A stretch of DNA of 64,000 nucleotides from assembly GCF_021028975.2 (NCBI RefSeq), contig NC_059425.1, positions 149,916,001-149,980,000 of the forward strand, in the 5' to 3' direction. Positions 7,599-10,500 of this stretch are shown here, piece by piece; position 1 is the stretch's first letter, and every line of letters begins with the position of its first letter. Both the position numbers and the translations under genes were made by a program. The notes beneath the pieces were generated by a model. That model was not told the DNA's origin and searched no databases. It saw only the letters and a program-made list of their open reading frames with translations. Origin of the DNA: Sphaerodactylus townsendi (taxonomy: Eukaryota).

Positions 7599-10500
7599 GT
7601 AAGTGACTTTTGTTCTGTGTTTGTATTTTAAATGGGGGCGTGACACTCCCGCCTAAAACTTCCTCTGGAAGTTTTACCTTTATCAACTTCCATTAACTAT
7701 ACTTAACTATTCTTACTGTACTACTCTTAATAACTGTCTATCACTAATACATAATATTGACTATGCTAACTGTAAACTTCTATGCTAACTATAACTATAA
7801 ACTTCTAACAATCTTGATTGCAGAATTCAAACTGCTTGTGGTTCACTGAAGTTCAACGCTCAGGATCTCTCAAGTGTCTGTCTCCTCAGCCATTGGGAAT
7901 CCATGGGCTGGATGAGAAAAACACATGTCTATCTGGTAGGCAGACTTGTGCCAATGCAACAAGTACTGAGTTCCAGTATTCCCATCGGGAATGTTCAAGT
8001 TGTTTCAGAGGCTGATCACAGACCTCTATGTCTTGGGTTGACTCTCTCTGCAAACACTTTCTATGGATAATGACAGGTGTGGTGGCTAACCTCTCTTGCG
8101 TGTTTGGGTTCAAAATGGATTTTTCTGGCCATAATTTTTGCTCTTGAAGAACACTCTGAAGTTTAGAACAGAGTCGTATATGATCCACATAATCTAGCAT
8201 CACATGTACTAGTTTTCCAGAGAGATGCTTTAGCCATGCTACAGTTATCACTTCACAAAACATATTGTCTTTAATAGCAGTAGAGGTCCATTCTTCAAAC
8301 ATGTACCGGGAATGCTTGTCTCCGTGAAAACAGTCGAAGCAACGGTACACATCATACCCGTAATTCAGTAACATTCTTGACATGACTTTGGCACCAAATT
8401 GTCGCAGCAAGGAGGCAATTTCATAGGAGTCATGTTGAACAGCTATAAATAAAGAAGAATCTCCATCTTCATTCTTAAAATCAGGGTTAAAGTTATTAAG
8501 TAGCAGAAAATGGACGTTTTCAACAAGACATTTATCCACCGCTACAAAGAGAGGAGTCTCTCCTTTCATATTTGTCTGTTGCCACACTGTGGGGTCTGAA
8601 GCTTTCAGAGTTATTTCTAGAATATGTTTGTTGAGTTGAGCTGCTGCATCATGTAAAGGAAGGCAGCCATCTCCATCTTGCTCCTGGAAAGCTGAACTGT
8701 GGCTTATCAATTTCAGCAAAGTCTCTGCTACACCTGTCGAATATCAGTAATTATCTTTATTTTAACCTTACGCACTCTGTGGTCCTCTCCTGGAACTACT
8801 TCTATCACAATGGCCAATGGCCAGAACCTCCATGGAGATTCTTTTTCCTTCATCAAGACCACGTCTCCTACTTGAAGATCTGGTTGGGGTTCTTCCCATT
8901 TGCTTCTTTTTTGTAACAATGGCAAATATTCTCTCTTCCATCTCTTCCAGAATGCATTAGCCAAAGACTGCACCTGTTGCCATTGTTTGTAGTGTACTCC
9001 TTTTAAATCTGAGGCTATAGTTGTATCGGTCCACGCATGTGATGGATTAAAAAGCCATTTGCAGCCTTCCTGCTTTAGAAATTCTTTTGTGTTTCTGAGA
9101 GAGGATATTTTCATTGTTTGTGTTGACCTGTTATTTTCTCGAACTTGTCCAGAACAACATTCGATTCTGTGACATGTCTGGAAAGCCTCTCAGAATGCCA
9201 ACTGTTTACTATGAGATCATCTTCTGGATCTGTGATGTTTTCTATCTCCTTTCCTGGTGCATATCTCTCCTCTTGCTGCACAGAGGATGTAACAATCAAC
9301 TTAGGCATCAGATCATTTATCTCAGATTGTGATTCAGTACCATCTCTTCTCACTCGCCTTGATTTTACCGCGAGCTGATTTTTGCTTTTCTGTGCAAGAC
9401 TTCATTTTTGTGCCTGCTGATGGTCACAGGAGCATCAGGTACACTGTTATCAGATGAATTACTGATGGATTCATCATGTTCTAAATACTGGGTTTTTTCA
9501 TCTTCATAAACTGACATAGCAGTACTATGCAAGGGTGCATCAAACCTCTCATCACACCTTTCTCCTAGTTCACTCCCCGGAACTTTCAGGTGCTGTAATG
9601 CCATAACGTGGTTGTTTGGCAACTTGCTTCTTGGCTGGGTAAAAGCCTGCTGTGGAGTTGATGATACTGCAGGAACAGTTGTCATCTTAGGCCAGTCAAA
9701 GAGCCATTTGGCTCGCCCGCCTCCCTGCCCGCTTGCCCCCACTCCCCCACCCGTTTTCCCACCCACTCGCCGCTTGCTTGCCCCCCGCCTGCTCGCTTGC
9801 TCCCCCCGCTTGCTTGCCCCCCCGCTCTTGCTCGCTCCGCTGCCCGCCCGCTCCCCCACCGCTCGCTTGCCCGCCCGCCCCACTCACTTGTCCACTCGCC
9901 CCCTGCTCACTCAACCGATCGCCTCCCCACTCACTTGCCCGCCCGCCCGCCCACTCACGCTCGCTTCCTCCCCGCTCACTTGCCCTAACGTGGTTGTTTG
10001 GCAACTTGGTTGTTTGGCAACCGTTTTCCCACCCACTCGCCGCTTGCTTGCCCCCCCTCCCCGCTCGCTTCCTCCCTGCTCTCTTGCCCGCCCGGCCCTG
10101 CTCCGCTCGCTTCCCTGCTTGCCTCGCTGCCTTAAATTTCTGCCCGGGCTTGGGCAGCCATGCCGGGAGCCGCACAAGAAGCATCGAAGAGCCGTTTGCG
10201 GCTCAGGAGCCGCGGGTTCCCGACCCCTGTCTTAGGCAGTTCTGGTCCCCGTCTAGGAACTGCAGGATTGAAAGTATATGCTGCAACTGGAGTGGTGTAT
10301 GTTGACCATGTCACGTTGTGTGAGCTTGTTGGCCAATCTTGCTTCTCTTTGGCTTGAGGTAGACTGTTCCACAGATCTGCCTGTCGGCTGGTCACCTCTG
10401 GTATCACCACACTAGGCTGTGGTTGAAAGTAAGTTGCTTGGTGTTGCACTTCTGGCCTCTGAAACATTGACACAGGTTGCTGCTCTTTGGGCATCTGGAA

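Follow-up and report, generated by a model that had tools for sequence, protein, structure and literature searches.

In-frame joins between a BEL/Pao retrotransposon and captured CENPU and ASB14 sequences in the gecko Sphaerodactylus townsendi

The locus raises the question of how the pol frame of a retroelement came to abut a piece of the host gene ASB14, and of what, if anything, such a fusion would be kept for. In the window, i.e. the whole stretch of 64,000 nucleotides of S. townsendi DNA analysed here, a DUF5641 frame of the minus strand (E 7e-26 in a profile search) ends at a TAG at 8730-8728, and offset from it by one frame on the same strand lies an ankyrin frame (Ank_2, 1e-14), the closest named protein of which is the gecko's own ASB14 (P0001, 92%). 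The original prediction, which had read these junction letters correctly, saw here a Pol-IN::ankyrin fusion created by template switching of the reverse transcriptase at a shared K-I codon pair and broken afterwards by a 1-nt deletion, and drew a parallel with the targeting chromodomains of chromoviruses. Our analysis leads to another view of the locus: the window carries one decayed copy of a non-autonomous BEL/Pao family, with the layout given in Table 1.

Table 1. Layout of the element copy in the window, from its 5' to its 3' end
Feature	Position	Strand	Remarks
5' LTR (TG...CA)	11762..12259	-	matches both LTRs of other copies
N-terminal gag region	10604..11627	-	93% to the near-complete sister L098; contains stops
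Gag-like linker	10230..10603	-	little match to L098; common to L034/L042/L105-type copies
Secondary insertion, 537 bp	9693..10229	-	flanking 8-bp duplication GCCTAAGA; not in L105
Captured spliced host CENPU	9118..9588	-	joins five exons and covers ~aa 38-192 of P0122; frameshift near 9414
Integrase C-terminal remnant, then truncated DUF5641	8758..9100	-	222-nt internal deletion at 9034
Junction patch	8720..8758	-	unique, out of frame; resembles end of host ASB14 exon 2 plus start of exon 3
Spliced ASB14 capture: exons 3 and 4, beginning of exon 5	8383..8738	-	aa 59-176 of P0001; ankyrin repeats
End of ASB14 exon 7, exon 8	8122..8388	-	in frame after internal deletion at 6-nt identity; no SOCS box
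Out-of-order pol piece	7880..8110	-	mostly RT-like; older subfamily; also in L039, L042 and L140
3' UTR, polypurine tract, 13-nt stub of 3' LTR	7633..7873	-	

The junction and the decay of the window copy

The similarity to ASB14 does begin inside the pol frame and upstream of the TAG, at ~8758 (about 8757 had been proposed), with 14 nt identical to the last letters of host exon 2, a score reached by 0 of 20000 shuffles. In the native gene this exon end codes for KIITAIRT, and exon 3 begins with GEEET. Over the exon 2/3 stretch, the window has one base fewer than the spliced copy L039 and differs from it by four other substitutions in ~22 nt. The copy is not a single base away from a Pol-IN::ankyrin protein: further upstream it is interrupted by indels near 9414, 9115, 9034 and 10603 and by the 537-bp insertion. 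Its integrase remnant has neither the zinc finger nor the catalytic Asp residues. The insertion is GC-rich, begins with CAGGGGTCGGGAACC and shows no matching right terminal repeat; we take it to be hAT-like. Elsewhere in the window, a dispersed MITE-like family is represented by hairpin-like inverted repeats at 23284-23838, 52185-52353, 54800-54958 and 62174-62257, and two stretches of N (38665-38794 and 38826-38999) lie at a distance from the junction.

The letters of the junction are private to the window. A 21-nt pattern for them has a single match in genome G000, the window itself, and they are not listed among the public contigs of four runs, which does not amount to absence since contigs drop rare variants; the letters that had been predicted for other copies do not occur there either. 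Because one letter of exon 4 is common to the window and the main group of copies (L042 and L039 are without it), and because L042, the basal in-frame copy, and the main group are both in frame, the junction is likely, judging from these letters, to be a later, secondary patch and not the original join of the family. The window copy also combines the short CENPU of the main group with the longer ASB14 tail of L042, the tail having a nested extra deletion.

As to the origin of the patch, we lean towards a secondary recombination, i.e. a switch onto an ASB14 template bearing exon 2. A chimera made during assembly or polishing, from reads of the spliced ASB14 copy, of ASB14-free sisters and of the main form, is a serious contender, which we hold to be somewhat short of probable. 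It would explain why five differences are crowded into ~22 nt when the flanks have 6/275 and 4/268 mismatches, why the hexamer GTAGCA of the patch is identical to letters of the ASB14-free tail and why the patch is unique in G000, and L039 does contain indel-rich stretches; against it stand the exact 14-nt match to exon 2 and the other private in-frame microhomology deletions of the window copy, which point to repeated switching. As a one-off, private oddity, the junction that had been flagged carries small weight.

The family, its main join and its two host cargoes

The family has at least 40 copies in G000 (41 matches in a DNA search, 40 scored of 111 candidates). At all 19 other top DNA loci the join differs from that of the window, being 5 nt shorter, and 18 of the 19 read from DUF5641 into ankyrin without a stop over the 50 codons shown. 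Among 30 loci with DUF5641, 22 have the family join, seven are ASB14-free with a normal DUF5641 end, and one is the window. In the set of phased sequences, 36 out of 43 contain the pol-ASB14 join and 34 of these 36 have it in frame, the exceptions being the window and the indel-rich L150. This main join lies at a 6-nt identity, ACAGGT, which is common to the ASB14-free tail and to spliced ASB14 and forms the start of exon 3. The K-I pair, ~20 nt upstream, is therefore not the crossover of the family; what is supported is that an in-frame fusion of pol and ASB14 exists, and switching at microhomology is its best origin. Contigs spanning the in-frame join were found in X5 and X6 (two of four runs) and in X1, i.e. 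in three studies and three organisms; the contig of X2, which extends into pol by fewer than 31 letters, is not included among these.

The join could also have been made by splicing, if a cryptic donor within pol had been used together with the acceptor of exon 3. Pol reads CAG/GT at this point, ASB14 begins precisely at the acceptor, and the ASB14 match of L039 likewise begins at one. We consider this unlikely, though a live alternative: an mRNA that is already spliced shares ACAGGT too, and the single 3' ASB14 join common to L039, L042 and the window points to a spliced donor borne by an element. Moreover, no remnant of the element was found in the 20 kb of native ASB14 compared, nor listed in further stretches, and ~12 unexplained letters precede the exon in L039, for which no upstream ASB14 exon with an exact or 1-mismatch match was found in 20 kb.

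The assignment to BEL/Pao is based on the LTRs and on the domains. Fused copies have TG...CA LTRs and a 5-bp target site duplication (TSD), the 3' LTR of the window copy being reduced to a stub, and the Pao-type order RT, Peptidase_A17, rve, DUF5641 is seen in the sister L098, where RVT_1 and rve score below their curated cut-offs; DUF1759 is weak in gag. The fused copies also have the features of LTR-mediated retrocopies, i.e. intronless host mRNA in place of an internal ORF between the LTRs and microsimilarity at the switch points: a three-way identity of 2-8 nt was found in 13 of the 14 joins tried (one anchor failed).

The cargoes come from two unlinked host genes, ASB14 (C3, 54.14-54.16 Mb) and CENPU (C10, 30.99-31.00 Mb), whose native loci contain introns and which the element copies match exon to exon without them. 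The second cargo, located between pieces of pol, is identified as spliced CENPU by Pfam CENP-U, by named gecko CENPU proteins and by the native exons on C10. The copies differ in content: L140, which belongs to an older subfamily (its gag-PR is 71% to that of L098), has CENPU alone; L039 has ASB14 alone, from aa 1-474 onward; and both cargoes are present in L042, in a long form, and in most copies, in a short form. Both shrink stepwise, CENPU being lost in some copies, and the out-of-order pol piece behind ASB14 exon 8 is the same one in L039, L042 and the window.

Several observations were made along with this comparison. The CENPU-only element L140 (G000:C1, 82.66 Mb) likely represents the first CENPU capture. 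The ASB14 of L039 (G000:C13, ~13.129-13.134 Mb) includes the 5' UTR and is in frame behind gag; the 3' half of this copy is very indel-rich, perhaps poorly polished, and the gene model P0130 (474 aa) may correspond to this copy. The database gene models P0121 and P0123 consist of gag pieces of the element plus CENPU and are annotated chimeric copies. The native ASB14 intron after exon 2 begins with TT instead of GT in G000 (L065:3238), and L039 is spliced exactly there; the donor is non-canonical or else the assembly is in error at this point; the exon-7 donor reads GC, and the human protein P0113 has one extra residue at the exon 2/3 boundary. L117 contains a 303-nt insertion in its integrase remnant (L117:7248-7552), probably acquired after the element had inserted, and at the start of gag in L038, L047, L115 and others a unit of ~81 nt is repeated in tandem in variable copy number.

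Out of 722 candidates with lengths of 351-2000 aa, 8 gave hits at E≤1e-30, and none of these is an annotated protein of another species that combines DUF5641 and ankyrin repeats, which is weak evidence. The titles and beginnings of abstracts covered by our literature searches likewise contain no report of the family, of which Repbase, subscription journals or supplements may hold a description.

Reading frames and codon evolution

Nine types of join occur in more than one copy outside an intact Gag, and for each of the nine the majority of copies is in frame. Besides pol-ASB14, these are CENPU-IN (29/30), joins internal to CENPU (27/29), RT-CENPU exon 3 (8/13), RT-CENPU exon 2 (4/7), PR-CENPU (4/4), RT-ASB14 (3/3), gag-DUF5641 (2/2) and gag-linker-CENPU (5/8). 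The RT-CENPU exon 3 joins lie on an A-run at which L098 itself shifts frame, so their phasing is disturbed; three types (8/13, 4/7 and 5/8) are in frame only by majority, and their misses we tentatively ascribe to nearby indels. Random microhomologies of 5-8 nt are in frame in 38-41% of cases, and with a null of 0.41 the probability of nine types out of nine is 0.41^9, i.e. ~3e-4, or 1.3e-4 for ten out of ten if the in-frame gag duplications are included. For joins seen in a single copy, 13 of 18 are in frame (p 0.007) and five are out. Furthermore, in 20 of the 22 fused sequences scored the distance from the end of the frame to the 3' LTR is 181-225 nt (195 nt in L098), the exceptions being L115 (398 nt) and the window (239 nt), with four further sequences having no match to the tract. 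In L033 a frame of 1338 aa is open from gag to ASB14. Most genomic copies have acquired later frameshifts.

Could this excess of in-frame joins be due to chance and ascertainment, with the cargo merely hitch-hiking? The microhomologies are themselves biased towards the frame (0.38-0.41), many copies were chosen by their rank in a protein search, which favours open frames, and the join types are not fully independent of each other. We find this account improbable in view of the counts given above for multi-copy and single-copy joins, of the presence of the main join in the DNA-ranked set as well, and of stops whose distance from the LTR is close to the natural one.

The codons tell a different story from the frames. 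In 33 sequences (L039 and L146-L153 were excluded as indel-rich), the ω of shared variants is 0.40 in the Zn/PR part of gag (p 0.0017 against private variants) and ~0.7, not significant, in its other parts, whereas it is 1.16 in IN-C/DUF5641, 1.27 in ASB14 and 1.06 in CENPU. Shared stops number zero in the latter three regions and three in gag. The codons of the cargo thus look neutral, with the reservation that the shared variants of ASB14 are few (16 N, 5 S) and compatible with moderate constraint, and that private variants give an ω of ~0.5 in IN-C and CENPU, a value not expected under strict neutrality. Frame is kept while sequence drifts, as would be the case for an RNA that depends on an open frame.

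The cargo peptides might still serve the element or the host through some protein role, for instance as a decoy or a tether within a Gag-containing polyprotein. That the joined frames are the coding frames of the host genes, that L033 is open from gag to ASB14 and that RNA reads of run X12 cross the join would all suit such a role. It would, however, have to accommodate the stepwise shrinkage of the cargo and the copies devoid of CENPU, a commonest form in which the PLHST motif of CENPU, which we take to be a PLK1-binding site, lies upstream of the join, the lack of a SOCS box in all copies, and an ω of ~1; we regard it as very unlikely.

Lost enzymes, probable movement in trans and a proposed mechanism

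The ASB14-free sister L098 has a Peptidase_A17, a full DUF5641 (profile 1-94) and weak rve and RVT_1 hits, and its pol frame shows motifs that we assign to a zinc finger (aa 527-570), to catalytic Asp residues (near 600 and 667) and to a Glu (near 717). In fused copies, what remains of the integrase starts at aa ~689 of this frame or later; in L045 it starts at aa 665, behind an out-of-frame join. No zinc finger or first catalytic Asp was found in any fused copy examined, and a scan of eight long frames of such copies was without a hit to RT, RNase H or rve, so these copies do not have the complete RT, RNase H and integrase core of an autonomous element. Their DUF5641 covers profile positions 1-83 of 94, the last 11 being missing. 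A DNA search with the integrase core gave eight places out of eight candidates, none of which has ASB14 within the stretches fetched.

The fusion does not yield an integrase equipped with a tail for targeting. In chromoviruses the additional module follows a complete integrase, and the likeness is limited to the position of the extra module at the integrase C-terminus, for the gecko family has no integrase core and only a shortened C-terminal domain. The reading of the ankyrin tail as a chromodomain-like targeting module is thus largely refuted and highly improbable: the in-frame join at the integrase C-terminus in most sequences and the numbers of fused loci and ASB14-free sisters (22 versus 7 among the 29 other DUF5641 loci) would fit it, but besides the losses just described, the short ankyrin part scores 20 bits, below the Pfam cut-off of 27.3, other copies join ASB14 from RT or gag and even in mid-repeat (L046, L047, L039), and its ω (from 21 shared variants, a small sample) gives no sign of purifying selection.

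In spite of these losses, the fused copies have moved. Among 47 sequences examined, 18 fused copies have full LTR pairs, which diverge by ≤1.4% (0-1.4%) in 15 and by 4-7% in three, and 16 of the 18 have exact 5-bp TSDs. They were thus integrated as LTR elements, and recently; as they have lost the enzymes, this implies a supply in trans. Expression of the family is weakly supported: run X12 has a depth of ~25 per mate direction at the join and eight reads over the family's 3' deletion, with equal directions, so that no strand can be assigned and DNA carry-over or read-through is possible; this support comes from one of three runs, the depth at the join being <1 in X13 and X14, and the index of runs names no RNA holder.

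Our preferred explanation, which we consider fairly probable, is that a non-autonomous BEL/Pao family captured spliced CENPU and ASB14 by template switching, is mobilised in trans and is selected for an open frame and not for the cargo protein. ASB14 mRNA would have entered an element similar to L039, and CENPU mRNA one similar to L140, and recombination at ACAGGT between co-packaged RNAs may then have produced the double-cargo form resembling L042. Additional in-frame deletions would have worn down both cargoes. RNAs with an early stop would be copied less, probably through nonsense-mediated decay (NMD) or a step coupled to translation, and the enzymes of ASB14-free sister elements likely move the fused copies. 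The window junction would be a subsequent patch from an ASB14 template with exon 2, or an assembly chimera.

Parallels exist among viruses. Acutely transforming retroviruses are replication-defective and depend on a helper, and their gag-onc genes are in-frame fusions with host mRNA; unlike them, the gecko family is a germline retrotransposon without sign of selection on the captured protein, and no env was seen. There are defective-interfering RNAs that need an open frame, not its sequence. Like the gecko family, they parasitise a helper, and in both the survival of the RNA is proposed to depend on whether it is translated, the gecko case being deduced from genomic fossils only. Whether the lineage as a whole is of this kind, with enzymes swapped for host mRNA filler, selection only for ribosomes that reach the natural stop, copies that outnumber the helper and a spread over several related organisms, is a matter on which we are evenly divided. 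We found no literature citation for selection on an open frame irrespective of its sequence, the passages of PMC9143164 included. In PMC2925335, retroviral RNA with a long 3' UTR is described as a predicted target of NMD, and RSV as carrying an NMD-evading element.

The template-switching model followed here is the one described for metazoans under the name of LTR-mediated retroposition (Tan et al. 2016, PMC5131818). Passages of that paper describe the Pao element BATUMI, which holds a chimera of two genes (CG4799_CG11924), as well as a mosquito retrocopy flanked by BEL18_AG. As in those cases, intronless host mRNA stands in for the internal ORF, the microsimilarity is ~6 bp, one element may hold two genes and further rounds of retroposition occur. 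Unlike them, as far as these passages go, the gecko chimera was amplified to at least 40 copies, kept recombining, and has joins in frame while the codons of the cargo drift; there is no frame analysis in the passages, and the main text nowhere uses the term 'in frame'. According to the same paper, maize Bs1 is an LTR element with pieces of three unlinked host genes, and thus resembles the gecko family in holding several such genes, but it is from a plant and has three, whereas the gecko family is a vertebrate BEL/Pao. What was already known is the capture of several genes by Pao/BEL elements; what appears to be new is an amplified two-cargo family with apparent selection on the frame only.

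An in-frame fusion of transposon and host sequences is usually taken as a sign of function, and this family, with its many independent joins, offers a natural test of that assumption. It also explains the spurious ASB14-like and CENPU-like gene models P0121, P0123 and P0130. If our explanation is true, selection on the frame would mass-produce in-frame host-element chimeric ORFs without selection on the proteins, and RNA surveillance, or a coupling to translation, would shape non-autonomous LTR elements and supply ready-made chimeric genes.
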